IMG/VR virus record: IMGVR_UViG_3300021254_001514
Coordinates: 18,853-82,852 of that record
From: a virus
Lineage: Duplodnaviria > Caudoviricetes
Reading direction: 5' to 3' (one strand)
DNA length: 64,000 nucleotides
The notes under the pieces are model-generated. The model did not search any database. It was not told the origin of the DNA and saw only the letters and a program-made list of their open reading frames with translations. Below, piece by piece: positions 48,919 through 64,000 of the stretch. Both the position numbers and the translations under genes were made by a program. Numbering within the stretch: position 1 is the stretch's first letter; the number at the start of each line of letters is the position of its first letter.

Positions 48919-50145
48919 TTATTCTCCTCTCTTCAAGAGATATTTACGAGAAACATTTTTGAAACTGAATGTTGGATCATCTACCCTATAGTAAACATAG
49001 CCTTCGCGCGCCTGCTTAGTTAATCCCTCGCAGACAGAAGGATCGTAGAAGCCATCAGCAGTCTTTTTAAACTCTTCAAAGTCATCCGGTAAATAGTAAT
49101 CCTTCTCATCAATGGGAACTACTTCCATCTCATAGAAATCCCAAATGCGCTTTGCCTCTCTAATATCATATCTTCCCTTAATAGAATCTGTCATATGGAA
49201 ACAATAAAAGTGAATATCTTTAAGGCCGTGCGGATTCCCCTGAATAGAGGGCGCGCATACCTCACCCTGCCAGCAAACAAATGTACATCCAGGTCGAAGA
49301 GTTAAGTAATCCTTCATCTTCTCTTCAATACGATATTTTTCTGCTACTCGCCAGAAGTTATCTCCATCTTTTTGAGATACTGGAATTCGTCTATTGCGCG
49401 AGCATACATAAAATTCAAACTTATTATGACCTTTTCTCTCAAGGATATAAGTGCCTGAAGAACCATCACATTTCTGAGTACGAATATAGGGAACTTTTTT
49501 CTCTAAAACCCAAGGCATATTTTCAACTCTTTCCTGGTCAGTTTTACTAACTCCAGGAAATTTTCCTACAGGCCAAGAATCTTCAAGGTATTTCTTTCTT
49601 CCAAAGAACAGATAAAGAACTTTCTTTCCAAAAGAAGTCTTATACAACATTCTACCAACTTTACTTTTTCCAATTTTTGGATGGCGCGCCATCATTTTCT
49701 TATATTTATCAACAGAAGAGGCCTTTCTTACATTATCCTCTTTCACATTATAAGTTACTCCAAGTTCCTTAGTTAAGAAACGAGACTCATCATCTACTCT
49801 GCGCGAAACATTTCCGCAAAGAATAGACCCATCTTCCATTACTGTCCATCCAAAACTCTTAACGGATACCAATAGTCCCTGAGAGACTTCTCCTCGAATT
49901 TTTTGAGACTTAACTTTGAAGTGTTTTCCTCTCAAAAATTCCATATCCGAAAAAGGTGGTACATCTGGTAACTGAGAATCAATTTCAAAATATACAGCAG
50001 GATCACCTTCCTCGAACTCTCCCTTACCTACCACACAGTGCCATCCGCCAATGTGCGCGCACTCAAGTCTATCGGCATTCATTGGAGTAATCTTTTCAAC
50101 CTTAACGAGGTAAGCAAGTTCTCTTTCTTTATCTTTATTTAACAT
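48919..50145 (-). CDS. ATP-dependent RNA ligase (Rnl2/DRB0094-like)
   Basis: Nucleotidyltransferase motifs KCDGSS (I), QGEV (III), FYCF (IIIa), REGYV (IV) and FKNVS (V); OB-like N-terminus. Confidence 0.88.
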   Translation of the reverse strand: MLNKDKERELAYLVKVEKITPMNADRLECAHIGGWHCVVGKGEFEEGDPAVYFEIDSQLPDVPPFSDMEFLRGKHFKVKSQKIRGEVSQGLLVSVKSFGWTVMEDGSILCGNVSRRVDDESRFLTKELGVTYNVKEDNVRKASSVDKYKKMMARHPKIGKSKVGRMLYKTSFGKKVLYLFFGRKKYLEDSWPVGKFPGVSKTDQERVENMPWVLEKKVPYIRTQKCDGSSGTYILERKGHNKFEFYVCSRNRRIPVSQKDGDNFWRVAEKYRIEEKMKDYLTLRPGCTFVCWQGEVCAPSIQGNPHGLKDIHFYCFHMTDSIKGRYDIREAKRIWDFYEMEVVPIDEKDYYLPDDFEEFKKTADGFYDPSVCEGLTKQAREGYVYYRVDDPTFSFKNVSRKYLLKRGE

Positions 50146-56141: not shown

Positions 56142-56744
56142 CTATTCTAAAACATACACTGCGGCGCTCTGTCTACCGAATTGCACCGCACTATCATAAT
56201 CATCAACATAGATGTCGATAACATTTGAAGCCATTCCACCTGTATCATGGATATATCGTTTTCCGATACCCTCTATATAAACCCATTTATGCCATAAATA
56301 TGGATCATTACAAGCAGCAGTATAGCCTACTTCTGGATAAACACCATCCGCGCAAGGATTACCTGTCCAAATATATGCTGTTAATTCCATATTAGAATAA
56401 TAGGTCATACCTTGTTCTGCGGCCGGGGCTTCTGTTGTGACAATGGCTTCTGTATTTTCTTCAATAAAAGTTTCTACTGTATATTCAGTTGTTTCTTTAT
56501 ACTCAGTTTCCGTTTCAGTTTCTATTTCTTCTTCAGTTACATAAATATACTTATATTCTATTGTTTTTACAACTACATACTCCTTTTCTTTTTCTTCAGA
56601 GTCTGTAGAGGTTGCTATTCTATTTTGTTCACTTGATTGTTCTCTTTCTTTTTCTAGCTCCTCGAACGCATCTGCGCCAAGAATACCAATAAGAGCGAGA
56701 ATAATTGTCAATAAGATAATCTTAATATAGTCTGCTTTTTGCAT
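56142..56744 (-). CDS. Membrane-anchored 3D-domain (lytic transglycosylase-like) protein
   Basis: N-terminal TM, E/T-rich linker, then ELTAY..ADG..TAACND..HDTGG..IDIY. Confidence 0.8.
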   Translation of the reverse strand: MQKADYIKIILLTIILALIGILGADAFEELEKEREQSSEQNRIATSTDSEEKEKEYVVVKTIEYKYIYVTEEEIETETETEYKETTEYTVETFIEENTEAIVTTEAPAAEQGMTYYSNMELTAYIWTGNPCADGVYPEVGYTAACNDPYLWHKWVYIEGIGKRYIHDTGGMASNVIDIYVDDYDSAVQFGRQSAAVYVLE

Positions 56745-56780: not shown

Positions 56781-57086
56781 TTATTCTTCTATTAGTTTTA
56801 AAGTTCTACATCCTGAGAGAGGCTTTTCTCTATTTGGCTTTGTCTTATAAGACCACCATTCGGAACCATTATATTCTACCCGTTCAAGCCACCAGTCATC
56901 ACCTACAATCGCTAACGCAGCGTTTACTTGTACAATACCATAACCATTATTGTAATTAAAATCCTTTGCTGCGATTGTAAAATATTCAAAGCTACAGAAA
57001 TAAACTCCATCAGTAACAAACTGAACATCTTCGGGGGTTTTTCTGTGAACCAAAAGACAGTCTATAGTTTCTTTTAATAGATTCAT
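56781..57086 (-). CDS. Conserved hypothetical phage protein (101 aa)
   Basis: MNLLKET..IVGDDWWLERVEYNGSEWW. Confidence 0.7.
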   Translation of the reverse strand: MNLLKETIDCLLVHRKTPEDVQFVTDGVYFCSFEYFTIAAKDFNYNNGYGIVQVNAALAIVGDDWWLERVEYNGSEWWSYKTKPNREKPLSGCRTLKLIEE

Positions 57087-57088
57087 TT

Positions 57089-57331
57089 TTACTCCTTTAT
57101 AAGGAAATTATTAATTTTTTCACAAAGATCTTTAAATTCTTCTTCTTTTTCAGTATAGACGTTCATCCTTATAGGACGTATTAAGTCTAAACTAAAAATT
57201 CCCATAATTGATTTCGCGTCGACTACATACTTCCCATTTACCAAATCAATTTCTATAGGTAGTTCGTCTACTATTTTTACAAATTCTTTGATTTTAGAAA
57301 TAGAATTTAAACTAATTTTTGTACTAAACAT
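57089..57331 (-). CDS. HPr-family protein lacking the catalytic His
   Basis: VDAKSIMGIFSL (Ser46 motif); no histidine anywhere in the protein. Confidence 0.8.
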   Translation of the reverse strand: MFSTKISLNSISKIKEFVKIVDELPIEIDLVNGKYVVDAKSIMGIFSLDLIRPIRMNVYTEKEEEFKDLCEKINNFLIKE

Positions 57332-57403
57332 TTTATCACCTTGATGTTAAAGCTCCCTACTTCTACTTATGGCGGGGAATCACCGATGTTAAAACTCCCT
57401 GTA

Positions 57404-57682
57404 TCACTCTAAATAAACATCAATACACCAAACAGATTCTTCTGTCTCAAAAGTAACTATGTAATCTTTAACAAAGAATGGGCCATGTACATCTCCCCAT
57501 TCCTCAGAAGTTTCTAAATATTCAAATTCATTAAACTGGCACTCAGCCTTTGATTCTTTTAGAAAATTATAAAGATCCACAACATTTACAAAATCTTCTG
57601 TCATATAACAAGGGCCTTGGCACATTTTATCATCTTCTTTTAAGTAGTGAAACCTAACTATCCCTTTCATTTTTTTTCTCAT
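57404..57682 (-). CDS. Hypothetical protein
   Basis: Own promoter and RBS. Confidence 0.6.
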   Translation of the reverse strand: MRKKMKGIVRFHYLKEDDKMCQGPCYMTEDFVNVVDLYNFLKESKAECQFNEFEYLETSEEWGDVHGPFFVKDYIVTFETEESVWCIDVYLE

Positions 57683-57724
57683 TTTTTAAAACCCCTTTCT
57701 ATGTTTTCTTTATTATATTATACT

Positions 57725-57774
57725 ATAAAAAATAAAAAAAAGCAAATTTCTGGGAGTCTTTCCCAGAAATTTGC
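57725..57774 (-). terminator. Strong intrinsic terminator ending the RNA operon
   Basis: 14-bp stem GCAAATTTCTGGGA/TCCCAGAAATTTGC plus a long U-tract on the minus strand. Confidence 0.9.
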
Positions 57775-58350
57775 CACGACTCGGCGCGGGTTGTATAAAG
57801 ATACCGCCATACTCGAGAATATAATTTTTTGCCTATCGCCGTTAATCTAAGGCCCAACCCTTAGTGGTAGAGGTCTATCCCCTAGAGTTCCTTCTGTTCG
57901 ATTTATAACCCGCAGATATGAAGTGGGTGGACTCAGCTTGGTCCAATGCGGCAGGTCGATTTTACTAAGTAATAACCGCCTTTAGAAGCTTCCGACTTTT
58001 GGTTAACCAGACCTTTAGATAAGAGGATAAAGTCATAATCCCTCTTGACGAAGTGCGTGTCGTCCTACGAGCAAATCTCTGGGTTTGCTTTCCCTGGGAT
58101 TTCTCCCCGATCCCATACGGCTTTTTAATTTTACTGGTTAAGAAGGGATTTCAACCTTGGTTTGTTATGTTTGTTCATAATCGTCTTGGTACATAACGAC
58201 CTCAGGGGCTACGTTCGTCGCTCACGAGACCCAAGCTTTTTGTCTGACCAGCAGTAGGTCTAAACCTTGCTGCCAGTAGACAGTCTTGGCGCCAGCTTAT
58301 TAGTGCTGGCACGTCATATCCTGTCAATTCAGGCCTTACTACCCCTTGAA
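57775..58350 (-). ncRNA. Candidate large structured ncRNA A (about 575 nt; ROOL/GOLLD-like context)
   Basis: No credible ORF; many hairpins and long-range complementarity; lies between tRNA-Ile and a terminator. Confidence 0.6.
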
Positions 58351-58351
58351 G

Positions 58352-58425
58352 TAGAAAGAATGGGACTTGAACCCATGACCTTCGCCTTATCAGAGCGACG
58401 TTCTAACCAACTGAACTATCTTTCT
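58352..58425 (-). tRNA. tRNA-Ile(GAT)
   Basis: Cloverleaf; anticodon arm TCGCT-CTGATAA-GGCGA. Confidence 0.92.
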
Positions 58426-58429
58426 ATGT

Positions 58430-58770
58430 GCGAGGCTCAACCCTCGCTTGCAGAGAATGTCCCTGGAGTTCCCCAACTTTTTGTGCGGCATGGGTGGTGG
58501 GCACGAGACCGCCGCGGCTACAAGCCAATAGGTTTTCAGTTTCCATACTGATGTTACGGGGTTCTGGGCTTGGCGAGGTGATCACTACTCTACCACCCAT
58601 GGGATCCCACCTCAAACAAATTGAAGGCGTCACTTCTTTTTTTAAGGAGAATTGTCAACTTCCCAAGCACTATTACGTTGGTACTTTCACGGCTGTTTTC
58701 ATCAGCTTTAGCTTCTCGTCGGTGAAGCATCCGACTTGGTCTTTTTTCGACGCATAGGCAACCAAGAGGC
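58430..58770 (-). ncRNA. Candidate structured ncRNA B (about 340 nt)
   Basis: GC-rich spacer between tRNAs; 10-bp long-range pair CATGGGTGGT/ACCACCCATG. Confidence 0.45.
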
Positions 58771-58774
58771 CTAA

Positions 58775-58845
58775 AGCCGCCAGACGGATTTGAACCATCG
58801 TACACTGATTACAAATCAGTAGTCCTACCACTAGACGATGGCGGC
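58775..58845 (-). tRNA. tRNA-Thr(TGT)
   Basis: Cloverleaf; ACTGA-TTTGTAA-TCAGT. Confidence 0.9.
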
Positions 58846-58915
58846 AGGGCCAAATAGGTATATTATATTATACCTATTTGGTTTTAAAAAAAGAAAGAAG
58901 GACTATTATATAGTA

Positions 58916-59120
58916 AGTGCCGGGTGTGCAGTTTCAATCACACGCATCCATGTTGGGTTCAACGACTCGTAACTGAGGTAGCTTACGCGGATTTGTATTC
59001 CCAGAGCAAAACGCGATTTGGTCTTTGTAGTCCACCGCTGCCTACTGTGGTGTCTCCCCACTGCTTCCCAACGTACTGGCTTTATTCTCTTCACGACTTT
59101 TAATACTTGTCTACCGACAC
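58916..59120 (-). ncRNA. tRNA-like RNA with a roughly 140-nt domain replacing the anticodon arm
   Basis: Acceptor GTGTCGG/CCGGCAC, D-like hairpin at the 5' end, T-like arm at the 3' end. Confidence 0.55.
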
Positions 59121-59134
59121 AGAATTAAAACATA

Positions 59135-59323
59135 TTACTCATTTGAAACTATAATTTCCCAATCATCATCATAATGAAGAGCTAAACCTCCCCAAGTTCC
59201 ATGAATTTGGTGCATATCGTCTATATATTTAACGACTCCTTCACGGTCTCTATATTGAGGTTCACCGAACATATGATAAATATGGATAAGGTCTCCAGGT
59301 TCTACACAGGACTTTTCTTTCAT
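59135..59323 (-). CDS. DUF4314-like small protein
   Basis: GD.I.I.HM.GEP..GVV..IDD..QIHGTW; own promoter and GAGG RBS. Confidence 0.65.
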   Translation of the reverse strand: MKEKSCVEPGDLIHIYHMFGEPQYRDREGVVKYIDDMHQIHGTWGGLALHYDDDWEIIVSNE

Positions 59324-59445
59324 TTTCTTTCCTCACTTTCTATAAATAGTATATCAAAAAAATAATGAAAAGTCAATTTTTAAAACTGGGCTACGTCTAA
59401 AAGAAATAAATATTTTTCATATTTGATCTCTTTTGTTTTTAATAG

Positions 59446-59516
59446 TTGGGGATGAGGGTTATGCTCCCCCGCCTCATGGGTCAAAGCCATGCTTGCTACT
59501 ATTACACCAATCCCCA
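59446..59516 (-). tRNA. tRNA-Gln(TTG) with non-canonical T-loop
   Basis: CATGG-CTTTGAC-CCATG; T-loop AGCATAA. Confidence 0.8.
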
Positions 59517-59591
59517 TTATGTGGTTAAATTTCTAACCACTGTTCATCTGTATATTGTCGAATTTCCTTTTTGTTCGAGGTAAATTCAATG

Positions 59592-59674
59592 CGTCGCCAC
59601 CAGGACTCGAACCTGGACTACCGCGAGGTAGGATAGATTAGCAATCTATTGGAATACCCTTATCCCATAGCGAC
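59592..59674 (-). tRNA. tRNA-Ser(GCT)
   Basis: ATAGA-TTGCTAA-TCTAT; long variable arm. Confidence 0.88.
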
Positions 59675-59683
59675 ATATAATTA

Positions 59684-59786
59684 CATAATAGATAAGGATT
59701 TGCACCTTACATGATGACACTTTCAACCTATGTACACTTGGTGTTCATCTTATGCCATAAGCGTCTACCTATTCCGCCACTATTAT
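59684..59786 (-). ncRNA. Leu-type tRNA scaffold with aberrant, expanded anticodon region
   Basis: Acceptor ATAATAG/CTATTAT, D-arm GCGGAATAGGTAGACGC, T-arm TAAGG-TGCAAAT-CCTTA; no 7-nt anticodon loop. Confidence 0.55.
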
Positions 59787-59794
59787 GATTTAAT

Positions 59795-59920
59795 TTGTAA
59801 TGGTGACCCTAAGCTTCTTACCTTCCCCGACGTTTTACCCATTACTATTCTTAACAGCTGACACTATTAAGACCTTAGGAATAAGTTTTTCATCATAGAC
59901 CTGTCAGAACCTATGAATAG
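59795..59920 (-). ncRNA. Candidate compact doubly pseudoknotted RNA
   Basis: Complementary hairpin loops CUGACA/UGUCAG plus crossing helices. Confidence 0.45.
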
Positions 59921-59927
59921 CTTTGTG

Positions 59928-60000
59928 TACAGCCCCAAGGAGTCGAACCTTGTGTCATCGGGTATAAGCCGATTCCCCAAAACCGTCGAGGACGAGCTGC
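59928..60000 (-). tRNA. tRNA-Ile(TAT)
   Basis: ATCGG-CTTATAC-CCGAT; canonical T-arm; atypical G8 and D-loop. Confidence 0.75.
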
Positions 60001-60007
60001 ATAGTAG

Positions 60008-60091
60008 TGGAGGTAGAGGGAATCGAACCCACTCGAGCTATAAAGCGATAAATTTACAGTCTACCCCGTCTCCTTAACGGTTTATACCTCC
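60008..60091 (-). tRNA. tRNA-Tyr(GTA)
   Basis: GTAGA-CTGTAAA-TTTAT; long variable arm. Confidence 0.85.
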
Positions 60092-60228
60092 TTTTAAAAC
60101 TAAATCACATCGGCTCATTACTCGTGTACATCGAGGACATAACCGAACCATACCGAAACAATACAGGTATCGTCTTTTCTGGTGCTCTCGATTTAGTTGC
60201 TTTAAGCATGATTTAATATGTCTGCCTG

Positions 60229-60300
60229 TGGGCCCGGAGGGATTTGAACCCTCATCTTACAGATTAAAAGTCTGCCATTCTACCATTAAACTACAGGCCC
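60229..60300 (-). tRNA. tRNA-Lys(TTT)
   Basis: GCAGA-CTTTTAA-TCTGT. Confidence 0.92.
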
Positions 60301-60305
60301 ATAAT

Positions 60306-60381
60306 TACAGACGAAGGGACTCGAACCCTTAACCGTCGGATTAGAAGTCCGATGCTCTAATTCCTATTGAGCTACGCCTGT
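60306..60381 (-). tRNA. tRNA-Arg(TCT)
   Basis: TCGGA-CTTCTAA-TCCGA. Confidence 0.92.
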
Positions 60382-60387
60382 GTATGA

Positions 60388-60461
60388 TAGGGATGAGGAG
60401 ACTCGAACTCCCGACCTTCGGTTTAAGAGACCGCTACTCTCACCAACTGAGTTACATCCCA
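60388..60461 (-). tRNA. tRNA-Lys(CTT)
   Basis: GCGGT-CTCTTAA-ACCGA; 1:72 mismatch. Confidence 0.85.
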
Positions 60462-60462
60462 G

Positions 60463-60534
60463 CTCCCACAGTAGGACTCGAACCTACAACTTTCTGATTA
60501 ACAGTCAGATGCTCTACCATTGAACTATGTGGGA
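60463..60534 (-). tRNA. tRNA-Asn(GTT)
   Basis: TCTGA-CTGTTAA-TCAGA. Confidence 0.93.
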
Positions 60535-60539
60535 ATATA

Positions 60540-60624
60540 CGACAAGGGTGGGATTTGAACCCACGGACCTTTTAGGCCTCTGGTTTTCAAGACCAGCGCA
60601 ATAGACCAACTCTGCCACCTTGTC
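60540..60624 (-). tRNA. tRNA-Ser(TGA)
   Basis: CTGGT-CTTGAAA-ACCAG; long variable arm. Confidence 0.92.
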
Positions 60625-60637
60625 AAAGAGGATAAAA

Positions 60638-61360
60638 TTATTTTATCCTCACTACTTTATTATATAAACAAGTATGATTACCTATCGTAGTATCTGTATG
60701 ATGATGTCCAAAATACCAATGCTTAAATTCTAATCCAAAATCTTTTTCCAAATGCCAAAAGAACTGTGTTAATTCATCTGGATTAGGATGCATACTATAT
60801 AATCTTTGTAAAAGTTGAGTACCGCAACAATGGGTTAATACATAATCAACATTAAAATGAACCTTATCAAGATTGGCCATAGCCTCTTCATATTCTTCTT
60901 TTGAAGGCATTTCCTCTTTCCACCATGAATACCCCTCAATCCTGTATACTTTATCTACGGACATTGCGCCACCCATTGTGAAAAAAGATTTTCCATCTAT
61001 ATTATAGACCTGTCCTCTCATTAGATGAATTACGTGCGGCGCATGGGGATGTACCTGAACTTTTCCACCAAACATTTCAATAACTGGTTGCTGCGCCCAC
61101 CATGAATGAAAATCATGATTCCCATCTATAAAAAGAGTCGTGTACTTTTGATTCTCAAGCCAGTTGATCCAATAATAATATTCACCCACTCCATCTTTAT
61201 ATTCATCCAGGTCAGCAGGACAAAAAGGAAGTCCAAAATCTCCAAGGACAATCATATAATCATTTCTTGTTAAGGTGTCGCCCATATTTTGTTCAAATAC
61301 GACTAACTTATCAATATCTAAATAACCATGAACATCTCCAGTAACAAAGATTCTGCTCAT
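60638..61360 (-). CDS. Calcineurin-like metallophosphoesterase
   Basis: GDVHG, LGDFG, DGNHD, TH and FGHHH motifs. Confidence 0.9.
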   Translation of the reverse strand: MSRIFVTGDVHGYLDIDKLVVFEQNMGDTLTRNDYMIVLGDFGLPFCPADLDEYKDGVGEYYYWINWLENQKYTTLFIDGNHDFHSWWAQQPVIEMFGGKVQVHPHAPHVIHLMRGQVYNIDGKSFFTMGGAMSVDKVYRIEGYSWWKEEMPSKEEYEEAMANLDKVHFNVDYVLTHCCGTQLLQRLYSMHPNPDELTQFFWHLEKDFGLEFKHWYFGHHHTDTTIGNHTCLYNKVVRIK

Positions 61361-61399
61361 CCTATCTTCTCCCTTCCTTCTTTATAAGAACTTCTTTAG

Positions 61400-61481
61400 T
61401 ACCGGCAGAGGGACTCGAACCCTCACGGCCAAAGACCCTGGGATTTTAAGTCCCATGCGGCTACCATTACGCCATGCCGGC
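61400..61481 (-). tRNA. tRNA-Leu(TAA)
   Basis: TGGGA-CTTAAAA-TCCCA; variable arm. Confidence 0.92.
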
Positions 61482-61631
61482 AAATGCGGGTACGTTTTAG
61501 GCTACCATCCCGCTTCAATGCCACGCCGGATTTTCAATTAGGTCGGGCGCGCGACCAATTATACCAGGTTTTTTCTTTCTTTCTTTATCTTATATATATA
61601 TTATAATAAATATTCTTTAAAAAGTCAAATA

Positions 61632-61865
61632 TTATTTAGGAAAATGCTGAAAATAAATTTCAAGATTCTCGCAAACCTTACCAGCTTTTACCATTCTACC
61701 AAATCTCTTTGCTGCTCGATTCCGAATGATGTCTGGGCGATAAGACTCCGAAAAGAACTTAATTGCACCATTGATCGTCTGCCATCCATCATTAATATTC
61801 ATAATCTGCCCATCGCACATCGTACGCGCCTGCTGACTCCAGCTCCTTGAATTATAAGCCTTCAT
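61632..61865 (-). CDS. Hypothetical protein (77 aa)
   Basis: Own promoter and AAGGAG RBS. Confidence 0.65.
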   Translation of the reverse strand: MKAYNSRSWSQQARTMCDGQIMNINDGWQTINGAIKFFSESYRPDIIRNRAAKRFGRMVKAGKVCENLEIYFQHFPK

Positions 61866-61972
61866 ATAATTAACTCCTTTCAGAATCAATTTCCTTTTTT
61901 CATCTTACATATATATTATAACAAATATTTTTTAAAAAATCAAATATTAAAAAAGAAAATTTTACAAATAAG

Positions 61973-62044
61973 CGATCTTATAGGGAATCGAACCCTAATT
62001 TTCGGAGAGACAATCCGATGTAATAGCCGTTATACTATAAGACC
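61973..62044 (-). tRNA. tRNA-Asp(GTC)
   Basis: TCGGA-TTGTCTC-TCCGA. Confidence 0.88.
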
Positions 62045-62047
62045 AAA

Positions 62048-62126
62048 TGCCCTCGGAGAGACTCGAACTCTCACGCTCGCGCACTAGTTCCTAAGACTAG
62101 CGTGTCTACCATTCCACCACAAGGGC
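62048..62126 (-). tRNA. tRNA-Leu(TAG)
   Basis: CTAGT-CTTAGGA-ACTAG. Confidence 0.92.
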
Positions 62127-62129
62127 TAG

Positions 62130-62750
62130 AGGGGAGAGAATTATATATCTCCCCTTTCTCTTTCTATATAAAATCCCCTATGCTATTATGCTTACACCAC
62201 CAGACCTGGGGAAGAACTAAATATATGGCTCTCAAAGAAAGAGAAAACCTTTCACCATATACTTTTAATTAGTATATACAATCCTGTATTCTAGGGCATA
62301 TACTAGACCCTGTTCAGTTTAGTCGGTCTGACAACCGCCACGATAGCCTGCCGAGGACGGACAGCAATCCCGCCAATTACGTGGGTCTAAACGCCACGCC
62401 GGTTCAGTTTGATTTTACCACACCCGGTTATCTACCCTCTGTGGAATGCGCAGCCAGGTTCTGCGCTCGCCTTAATCTCAAAAGAACTTTCGGAAGTTAT
62501 TAACTTTTATCCGCATCGGATTTCTCATCATCAGGAGTTAACCGAAACACCTAAGGTTTTTTGTTCTTTAGGCTCAAACCTGTTTAGTATTGTGAGACTA
62601 TTTAGATTGTTTCCAAAGTGGTCTATTCGGATTATCTAATTATAACGTAAGGATAAAGTCTCCTACCCCCAGCAATATATCGTGTTGCTTTACGTATGCA
62701 CAGCGCATAAACTCTATCTTCTTTTTGACCTATGGCAAGATAAGAACCAT
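62130..62750 (-). ncRNA. Candidate large structured ncRNA E (about 620 nt)
   Basis: No credible ORF on the transcribed strand; multi-hairpin; between tRNA-fMet and tRNA-Leu. Confidence 0.55.
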
Positions 62751-62753
62751 AAA

Positions 62754-62827
62754 TAGCGGGGACAGGATTTGAACCTGTGACCTTCAGGTCATGAGCCTGA
62801 CGAGCTTCCGAGCTGCTCCACCCCGCG
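62754..62827 (-). tRNA. tRNA-Met(CAT), initiator-like
   Basis: CGCGGGGTGGAGCAG start, C1:U72 mismatch, TCAGG-CTCATGA-CCTGA. Confidence 0.9.
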
Positions 62828-62830
62828 ATA

Positions 62831-62932
62831 ATACCATCAGTAAGGAATCGAACCTTATCCTCCGGCTCTGAGTATCTATTGGTTAAATAGCCTCCGGAGC
62901 CAGTGTGCCGCCATTACACTATATAATAGTAT
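62831..62932 (-). ncRNA. tRNA scaffold with an inserted hairpin in the anticodon loop
   Basis: D-arm GTGT-AATGGCG-GCAC, stem CTGGCTC/GAGCCGG enclosing 28 nt, T-arm TAAGG-TTCGATT-CCTTA. Confidence 0.6.
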
Positions 62933-62986
62933 CTATACTACTAAAGTAACTAACTTTTTCATATAGAGTTATTATAATGCCTTTTG

Positions 62987-63320
62987 TCACGTTCTACGAC
63001 TTCCATTATAGTCGAAATTCTGCGCTGGTGGTATTGTTGTGTATCTCCTCATAGGGAGTCCAGTAACTTCTGGAACTGACATCTCGGTTCTGGTTTGCAA
63101 CCCATCGCCGTTTTCCTTGGCATTTGTTCACTTTCTATAATTATTATAGTTAATTTTTTCAAAAGAATCAAATTTTAACAACTTCATATCTCGTTCCACG
63201 ACTCCCGTTATAGTCGGAATTCTGCGCGCGAATGGTACTGTTGTATCGTCTTTGGAGACGACCTGGGCCGCCAGGCGGATATTCTCTGCGGGGTTGGGAT
63301 CCGTCTCTTCCGCAGTTTGT
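62987..63320 (-). ncRNA. Two copies of an unknown structured RNA motif
   Basis: 62987-63025 vs 63189-63227: 34/39 identical with a compensatory pair. Confidence 0.6.
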
Positions 63321-63334
63321 ATTGTTGATTTAAT

Positions 63335-63403
63335 TGAAAACGTCAGATTCGAACTGCGCCTCTACATCCCAAGTGTAGCGTGCTACCATTACACCACGTT
63401 CTC
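63335..63403 (-). tRNA. tRNA-Pro(TGG)
   Basis: CTACA-CTTGGGA-TGTAG; imperfect T-stem. Confidence 0.8.
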
Positions 63404-63511
63404 AAAAATAATGCCTTTCGCAACTAAGATTTTCGAGACGCATCTCTACTCATCACACGTCCGTGAACGCTGTCTTTCACCGTACTATCCGAAGAATAAC
63501 GGAGGGCTTCG

Positions 63512-63583
63512 TAACCTTGATGGGATTTGAACCCATGACTTCGCCGTGAAAGGGCGACGGCTTAACCACTTGCCGACAAGGCC
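63512..63583 (-). tRNA. tRNA-Glu(TTC)
   Basis: TCGCC-CTTTCAC-GGCGA. Confidence 0.92.
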
Positions 63584-63702
63584 ATATTTATAAGGTATGA
63601 ATTAGATATGGCAATAAAATTTATGAATATATTTTTATTGCCATATCTTTTTCTCTCACCTTTCTAATATATAATATCATATTTTTTAATAAAAGTCAAA
63701 TT

Positions 63703-63993
63703 TTATTTCTCTATATCTTCTAAAGTTGGCTCACTGATTTCTTCCCCAACATAAACCTCTACCTTTTCATAAGGATCTCTTATATTAAGGATAAAGTTTA
63801 GATTATCAATAGCAAAATTTATTTTTTCAATAGACTCAGAAACATTCTGGATCTCTATTCTATAGTCATTAATATTATCAATCTTTTCTGAAAGAGAAAC
63901 ATTCTCTATTTTGTAAATATCACTAATAATTTTTTCTGTCTCTTCTATATAAGAGAGATAGTCTTTCTTTTTTCTTTTAAGTTCATCAATCAC
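63703..63993 (-). CDS. Hypothetical coiled-coil protein (may start beyond the window)
   Basis: ORF at the window edge. Confidence 0.55.
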   Translation of the reverse strand: MIDELKRKKKDYLSYIEETEKIISDIYKIENVSLSEKIDNINDYRIEIQNVSESIEKINFAIDNLNFILNIRDPYEKVEVYVGEEISEPTLEDIEK

Positions 63994-64000
63994 TTCTTTA

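Follow-up and report, generated by a model that had tools for sequence, protein, structure and literature searches.

A candidate GC-rich RNA domain inside an inter-tRNA segment of an uncultivated rumen phage

Described RNAs and the RNA B locus

GOLLD is a large RNA that phages and prophages encode close to tRNA islands. In one member that has been studied, it is found downstream of tRNA-Met; across the family, the 3' region is conserved and the 5' region is variable (doi 10.1101/2024.12.08.627333). ROOL has a mean length of 581 nt (PMC5737381) and was seen by cryo-EM as an octameric cage (doi 10.1101/2024.12.08.627333). The segment analyzed here, RNA B, likewise lies in a phage tRNA array, and it resembles ROOL in being phage-encoded, from the rumen, ca. 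600 nt long, and positioned in a tRNA array on the strand of the tRNAs.

The tRNA cluster of phage T4 encodes stable non-tRNA RNAs, species 1 and 2 (rnaC/rnaD), which are co-transcribed with the tRNAs and excised by the tRNA enzymes; at less than 626 nt, they are about the size of the 170-nt core of RNA B described below. The mechanism of rnaC/rnaD would be the one that we propose for RNA B. In MALAT1/mascRNA, an RNase P cut at a tRNA-shaped element makes the 3' end of the upstream RNA, and a nearby structure stabilizes it. That system differs in being eukaryotic and in having a triple helix as its stabilizer, and it may serve as a mechanistic analogy to RNA B with no homology implied.

The window, i.e., the whole stretch of 64,000 nt that was analyzed, covers the final 64 kb of a viral contig from IMG/VR (82.9 kb; CheckV completeness 71%). 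PHROG matches to terminase, portal, Dit tail protein, and RNA ligase show that the uncultivated rumen phage is a tailed phage; the RNA ligase is encoded at 48919-50145. Copies of RNA B with 100% identity were found on a 104-kb ENA scaffold (ERZ28612963; L006 8609-9234) and on a short Logan contig (SRR873595; L007), both probably from sheep rumen to judge by their record names. ARAGORN and Rfam located 16 tRNA genes at 58351-63583, all on the minus strand, as are all genes near RNA B. Since the tRNAs and the neighboring genes share this strand, the RNA sense of RNA B was taken to be the minus strand. The tRNA-Met was called initiator-like because of a C1/U72 mismatch read directly from the sequence. 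Elsewhere in the array, a tRNA at 59446-59516 was found by the Rfam model (46.7 bits) and missed by ARAGORN. The features around RNA B are as follows.

63143-63171, minus strand: promoter-like site (TTGATT-17-TATAAT, 10/12) from a consensus scan, the nearest good one upstream of the unit
62841-62921, minus strand: tRNA-like element directly upstream of tRNA-Met, with an insertion or extra hairpin in the anticodon arm (Rfam tRNA model 21.5 bits, cut-off 29)
62753-62828, minus strand: tRNA-Met(CAU) (ARAGORN; Rfam 58.3 bits), which sets the 5' boundary of RNA B; CCA is not encoded
62127-62752, minus strand: RNA B, the whole ORF-free inter-tRNA segment (626 nt) between tRNA-Met and tRNA-Leu(UAG)
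62048-62126, minus strand: tRNA-Leu(UAG) (ARAGORN, Rfam), whose 5' end is the expected RNase P site and the 3' boundary of RNA B
61972-62044, minus strand: tRNA-Asp, downstream of tRNA-Leu(UAG)
61632-61865: P0002, a 77-aa gene ca. 240 nt downstream of RNA B

An earlier note made from the sequence alone had described RNA B as a second large non-coding RNA, distinct from RNA A (57775-58350) and released by tRNA processing. Its description of the segment was accurate in several respects. RNA B fills the whole gap between the two co-oriented tRNAs (626 nt, from tRNA-Met at 62753 to tRNA-Leu at 62126), and the lone ORF that was noted (62409-62639) is antisense, encoding 76 aa on the plus strand; all ORFs on the sense strand were at most 23 aa. 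The named inverted repeats were all found in the sequence, as was the repeat present twice, AAACTGAAC, at 62312-62320 and 62402-62410 on the RNA strand; ca. 0.78 copies of it are expected in the whole 64-kb window versus 2 observed within RNA B. When RNA A and RNA B were both compared with positions 57001-64000 of the window using nhmmer, no match between the two was obtained.

The antisense ORF, or alternatively a gene with a reassigned stop codon, might make RNA B protein-coding, a reading that we consider hardly credible. The plus strand does contain an 82-codon stop-free frame, and the relatives G002, G003, and G021 have tRNAs with a CUA anticodon. However, the ORF starts with TTG and runs opposite to the tRNA genes and both flanking protein genes, and in the natural variant L099 described below, the frame is broken into pieces of at most 46 codons. 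The five open pieces of RNA B had no Pfam or PHROG match. Reading TAG as Q or TGA as W opened no long frame on either strand except those running through a tRNA, and a recoded gene was rejected because no frame opens. The CUA-anticodon tRNAs of the relatives, labeled 'Pyl' by ARAGORN, are located at L094 15741-15828 (G002), L095 1173-1245 (G003), and L096 5349-5442 (G021), and as amber suppressors, they hint at TAG recoding in these three phages; none was found in the window. Degenerate tRNAs were also considered as the origin of RNA B. No tRNA or tRNA-like cloverleaf was detected inside 62127-62752 by ARAGORN or by the Rfam tRNA model (RF00005, E ≤ 10), and this origin was rejected.

Known RNA families and related phages

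The earlier note had put forward an Rfam search as a check. RNA B matched no family of Rfam 15 at the gathering threshold, and at E ≤ 10, the only matches were chance-level ones to eukaryotic snoRNA models (15.6–18.9 bits); the searches at E ≤ 10 covered positions 57500-64000 of the window (6.5 kb) and 62120-62760 alone. Neither ROOL (RF03087; gathering cut-off 99.1 bits) nor GOLLD (RF02032; gathering cut-off 150 bits) gave a match at E ≤ 10 in RNA B, in 57500-64000, or in the whole 82.9-kb record, and the relatives that served as positive controls for ROOL scored 257–322 bits. Ribozyme and intron models (group I and II introns, HDV-like, hammerhead, and others) also gave no match in RNA B at E ≤ 10; the sensitivity of this search is indicated by the detection of an HDV-like match in the tRNA array of a relative. 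This match to the HDV-like CPEB3 ribozyme model (RF00622; 40.3 bits, gathering score 35) at L097 1492-1579 (G004) lies in a 910-nt, 49% GC gap between tRNA-Asp and tRNA-Glu and is a possible self-cleaving ribozyme in a phage tRNA array.

Eight ROOL signature motifs drawn from the cmscan consensus, such as CAGUGAAGA, GUAAUCAAUC, CUCAGACUUAUC, AAGUAGC, and GCGAAGGC, were all absent from RNA B and RNA A when 57500-64000 was scanned with one mismatch allowed in motifs of at least 9 nt. Among the 12 motifs searched, the sole match was one chance copy of GUGAAAG. A decayed ROOL was rejected, as there was no partial match and no motif. RNA B has the context of ROOL (a length of ca. 580 nt, phage origin, and tRNA proximity), which is insufficient for membership. 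Comparative support, from two sequences, was obtained for one multi-helix domain of ca. 141 nt in RNA B. Judging from these models and motifs, RNA B belongs neither to ROOL nor to GOLLD, nor to another Rfam family.

Using the terminase, we recovered 80 related IMG/VR loci with 49–83% identity and searched the 45 longest records, 22 of which were at least 90% complete. Twenty-three of the 45 records, including 18 of the 22 complete ones, contained ROOL as a single copy (257–322 bits); L095 13152-13759 (G003) and L094 1094-1688 (G002) are examples. ROOL, and not RNA B, is the hallmark RNA of this phage family. In the phage of the window, no ROOL was detected in the 90 kb scanned of the 104-kb scaffold (ca. 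14.6 kb lay outside the scan). The scan covered the 82.9-kb record and 7.4 kb past the end of the window, which contains the ClpP-PhoH neighborhood, the ROOL site in several relatives. In all four tRNA arrays of relatives that we inspected, there were one to three ORF-free inter-tRNA gaps of 450–920 nt with 42–50% GC. The earlier note considered it unusual for a phage to have two giant RNAs; this is wrong for the present family, in which a genome has several ORF-free, GC-rich inter-tRNA gaps and most complete relatives have ROOL.

Homologues of RNA B itself were sought in several ways. BLAST against the 45 related records yielded two chance matches of 17 and ca. 38 nt and no homologue, and a covariance model of the core matched none of these records. 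The same model run with filters off on 86 kb of the relatives' loci (four tRNA arrays and two phosphoesterase-gene neighborhoods) found nothing. With RNA B as the query, nhmmer found no homologue in four tRNA arrays of relatives or at six other loci, and blastn found none in INPHARED phages. Exact and degenerate pattern scans with the most conserved islands were empty in IMG/VR, JGI metagenome contigs, and GTDB genome contigs. The earlier note had itself named a lack of conservation in related phages as evidence against its proposal, and RNA B is absent from all 45 relatives. Within the databases searched, RNA B is found only in one phage lineage.

We compared the surroundings of tRNA-Met between the window and its relatives. 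The tRNA-Met of the window is ca. 85% identical to the ROOL-adjacent tRNA-Met of G002 and G003 and is unlike their other tRNA-Met copies. The order in G002 and G003 is ROOL, tRNA-Met, and then an ORF-free stretch of ca. 500 nt (470–550 nt) with 42–46% GC, which is conserved between both phages (79% over 81 nt) and unrelated in sequence to RNA B. These stretches are located at L105 (G002:C1:101500-105400) 987-1540 after reverse-complementing and at L106 1528-1997. The G002 stretch includes a sub-threshold match to the 'drum' RNA (L094 406-515; 38.1 bits, cut-off 43), and an AGGAGG-N-ATG conserved in the stretches of G002 and G003 could start a small ORF. As far as these alignments tell, RNA B sits where the family keeps non-coding RNAs, yet it is neither ROOL nor the element that follows tRNA-Met in the relatives.

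Composition, folding energy, and natural variation of RNA B

RNA B was divided into the following parts according to GC content and predicted folding.

62476-62752, minus strand: 5' arm (277 nt, 36% GC, z −0.12), with a predicted hairpin at the extreme 5' end (62730-62752)
62448-62466, minus strand: hairpin H1 (GCGCAG-7-CUGCGC), its pairings read from aligned sequences
62303-62443, minus strand: GC-rich core domain (141 nt, 54.6% GC) with a predicted multi-helix fold
62127-62302, minus strand: 3' arm (176 nt, 35% GC, z −0.62), with a terminal 8-bp hairpin (62130-62137/62148-62155) that ends 3 nt before tRNA-Leu

The MFE of the whole of RNA B was no better than that of shuffled sequences (z −1.34), and with 200 shuffles for each part, the z-scores were −0.12 for the 5' part, −0.51 for the core, and −0.62 for the 3' part. 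As a positive control, the ROOL RNA of a related phage gave a z-score of −5.96 using the same folding method. The core including H1 (62303-62475, 173 nt) has 55.5% GC versus 35.3 ± 5.7% for the genome, which places it at the 99.9th percentile among windows of 141 nt. The two arms, together 453 of the 626 nt, have average GC content, and the 5' arm (62476-62752) showed no sign of constraint in folding z-score or GC. The view that RNA B is a highly structured RNA of ca. 620 nt was supported only in part, since its helices are at chance level as a whole and in each part, and the GC excess is confined to the core. RNA B as one large, densely structured RNA is not supported. The part of the earlier proposal that stands is that of a non-coding segment co-oriented with the tRNAs and distinct from RNA A, and the part that lacks support is the large dense structure.

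In the predicted fold of 62303-62443, a long-range 10-bp helix (GGU.GAUAACC/GGUUGUC..ACC) encloses a two-part hairpin and a CUGUC/GGCAG hairpin, and a GACU/GGUC hairpin follows the domain closed by this helix. The loop of the last hairpin contains AAACUGAAC, which is found twice in RNA B.

These data bear on the possibility that all 626 nt belong to a single large, ornate RNA in the class of ROOL and GOLLD, which would be the second giant RNA of the phage; we regard this as improbable. The length of 626 nt and the place next to tRNA-Met in a phage tRNA array resemble ROOL and GOLLD; 18 of the 22 complete relatives have ROOL and the scanned parts of the window's phage do not; the tRNA-Met of the window is orthologous to the one next to ROOL in these relatives' members G002 and G003; and the whole-segment MFE fold pairs a region near the 5' end with one near the 3' end. 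However, neither ROOL nor GOLLD matched even at E ≤ 10, 0 of the 8 ROOL signature motifs were present, the z-score was −1.3 versus −6.0 for a real ROOL, and GC enrichment was limited to ca. 170 nt, with average composition in both arms. RNA B also lies downstream of tRNA-Met, whereas ROOL lies upstream of it in G002 and G003, which are the closest two of the complete relatives that have a tRNA array; the order there is not tRNA-Met followed by a large RNA, and the ORF-free region that does follow is unrelated.

To obtain variants of RNA B, neighboring genes were used as baits. Relatives of the metallophosphoesterase P0001 had at most 61% identity and lay in unrelated contexts, and the 200-aa protein at 56142-56744 retrieved nothing useful. 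The 143-aa upstream protein led to a 13.6-kb variant contig ending ca. 300 nt short of RNA B. An 83%-identical homologue of P0002 was present on three short Logan rumen contigs, leading to the variant L099, whose lineage occurs in SRR3299xxxx runs; P0002 has just 2 homologues among 5.8 billion proteins. A more distant P0002 relative, L101, has ORFs where RNA B and its tRNAs would be. L099 extends 430 nt into RNA B and is the sole informative variant.

Between L099 and the window, the tRNAs were 99–100% identical, the spacers 98%, the 3' 236 nt of RNA B 97%, and the P0002 coding sequence 88%, and the middle of RNA B (62560-62363) was 53% identical. Because the 97% identity of the 3' part equals the local background, it carries no information on constraint. 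RNA B resembles GOLLD in having a 3' part that both variants share and a middle in which they differ, but RNA B is shorter and has no GOLLD match at E ≤ 10, and its 3' near-identity only reflects the 98% background. A divergence of 47% over 200 nt could not arise by neutral decay when the remainder of the two genomes is 98% identical; hence, by its alignment, the middle of RNA B is a mosaic patch contributed by a diverged homologous allele.

Inside the divergent patch lie islands of perfect conservation, CACAGAGGGUAGAU, AAAAUCAAA, and GGAUUGCUGUC...GGCAGGCUAUCGUG, and the 56 columns between the islands are 36% identical. The separate MFE folds of both variants gave the same long-range helix, GGU.GAU(A/G)ACC/GGUUGUC..ACC, whose 10 bp differ by a single change of A-U to G-U in L099. 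A 3+5-bp hairpin occupies identical columns of an ungapped alignment, and in 7 of its 8 pairs, both bases differ between the variants. The 27 proposed pairs all form in L099 as well as in the window, and 7 pairs are compensatory, compared with 0–1 in slid controls. Of 2000 trials with both divergent stretches shuffled, 36 yielded a shared composite hairpin of this size (ca. 0.018), a p of ca. 0.02 that is suggestive only, as there are two sequences and the structure was derived from the same two. At the position of H1 (GCGCAG/CUGCGC), L099 has a C(UUCG)G-type hairpin, CGUC-UUCG-GGCG. Conserved junction nucleotides with swappable peripheral hairpins are the pattern seen in structured RNAs. Alternatively, the conserved islands may be recombination junctions and not the result of RNA constraint, since P0002 also diverges locally (88%) between 98%-identical flanks. 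Two other elements were rejected upon comparison with L099: an 8-nt complementarity between CAUUCCAC of RNA B and the D-arm of tRNA-Leu, which is not kept, and a local MFE stem, CCACA/UGUGG, which is absent.

Taken together, we tentatively lean toward the reading, held with somewhat less than even confidence, that the GC-rich multi-helix domain of ca. 170 nt in RNA B is a lineage-restricted functional RNA freed by tRNA processing and that the arms are spacer. It is ORF-free under code 11, code 4, and TAG=Q and lies on the same strand as the 16 tRNAs; on the other side, the folding energy of the core is at chance (z −0.51), and the segment is absent from the 45 relatives. What keeps the idea of the core alive is that the single variant L099 preserves the helices via compensatory changes.

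The same data could be read as those of a non-functional spacer, left-over or shuffled DNA in a mosaic region that would be transcribed and then discarded, with the core as a decaying older RNA gene. We judge this main rival reading rather unlikely, with real weight on its side: the folding energy of RNA B is at chance level, no counterpart occurs in the 45 relatives, L101 has different content upstream of the same neighboring gene, and the middle diverges by 47% in a pair of phages with ca. 98% identity otherwise. In addition, contigs in Logan that belong to the variant lineage stop within RNA B or at its edge, which fits a recombination hot spot. However, neutral decay would not account for the divergence of the patch, as noted above, and the diverged allele keeps the closing helix and places different hairpins on the same columns. 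In AT-rich genomes, selection for RNA structure produces a strong GC excess like that of the core, and a decaying remnant should drift to 35% GC. The contigs of the variant lineage (L098, L099, L100, and L103) end at ca. 62115, 62560, and 63055, i.e., at or inside RNA B and the upstream gap, which suggests strain-level heterogeneity in those rumen samples.

A bolder form of the functional reading, which we regard as distinctly unlikely, is that a rare, uncatalogued phage RNA class has its first representative in the core, possibly together with the arms, and that this RNA is a non-homologous replacement of ROOL in the slot adjacent to tRNA-fMet that ROOL occupies in most of the family, with the variable middle as a swappable specificity module on a conserved scaffold.

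Transcription, processing, and possible role of the core

We infer from the sequence how RNA B might be transcribed, processed, and stabilized and what function, if any, it could have. Below the promoter-like site 63171-63143 lies a unit of the tRNA-like element, tRNA-Met, RNA B, tRNA-Leu, and tRNA-Asp, without terminator-like sites down to 61972, and the scan found no terminator-like site downstream of RNA B before the array end at 57775-57741. RNA B contains no credible promoter or terminator of its own; the internal promoter-like sites score 9/12, the minimum of the scan. Those on the tRNA strand, each 9/12, are 62316-62288 (TGAACA-17-TAGAAT) and 62738-62711. A score of 9/12 is common by chance, with 17 sites expected in 6.5 kb, and the phage's own promoters score 10–11/12. 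Since RNA B is co-oriented with the tRNAs and has neither promoter nor terminator, co-transcription and release by tRNA enzymes are the natural expectation, and RNA B is probably transcribed as part of a tRNA precursor.

These internal sites raise the possibility of an element acting at the DNA level or in cis, in which the AT-richer 3' arm and part of the core would be a promoter or processing region for tRNA-Leu and tRNA-Asp or a recombination site for cassette exchange. The region is mosaic, and the weak site at 62316-62288 overlaps AAACUGAAC, a motif kept in L099. However, sites of this score are frequent by chance and fall below the phage's own promoters, and such an element would leave the GC-rich core and the compensatory changes unexplained. 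We hold it to be very improbable.

Under the reading of the core as a functional RNA, transcription would start from 63171-63143, a putative promoter, and proceed through the tRNA-like element, tRNA-Met, RNA B, tRNA-Leu(UAG), and tRNA-Asp. An RNase P cut at the 5' end of tRNA-Leu and the processing of the 3' end of tRNA-Met would free RNA B, and the predicted hairpins at both of its ends could shield it against exonucleases. The functional-looking part would be the GC-rich domain of ca. 170 nt (62303-62475), multi-helical and closed by the long-range 10-bp helix, with peripheral hairpins that appear to be swappable, and the arms of 277 nt and 176 nt would most likely be spacer. Our best guess for the core is a stable, trans-acting phage RNA akin to other non-tRNA RNAs of phage tRNA clusters.

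The picture of RNA B is thereby corrected from a second giant RNA to a candidate of ca. 170 nt inside an ordinary spacer. If the core is functional, it would be one more uncatalogued RNA embedded in the tRNA arrays of rumen and gut phages, and it would offer a natural comparison between ROOL in most phages of the family and a different RNA beside the same tRNA-Met. A family in which ROOL is sometimes replaced could help reveal the role of ROOL.

Other inter-tRNA gaps of the window, unlike RNA B, have weak-to-clear relatives in the relatives' tRNA arrays as found by nhmmer, namely RNA A and an element at ca. 58909-59120. The 5' 170 nt of RNA A resemble L094 10429-10623 (E 3e-6), which lies in a 551-nt gap between tRNA-Asp and tRNA-Met of the relative G002; RNA A has an MFE z-score of −0.61 and no Rfam match. 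On the minus strand, the gap that separates the tRNA at 59446-59516 from tRNA-Thr contains the element at ca. 58909-59120, which comprises ca. 200 nt conserved in other phage contigs. With a 62-aa ORF at 58906-59094 and no Rfam match, it may be a small gene or an RNA; it matched L009 10712-10900 (E 2e-26), L095 6642-6916 (E 3e-15), and L094 8229-8434.
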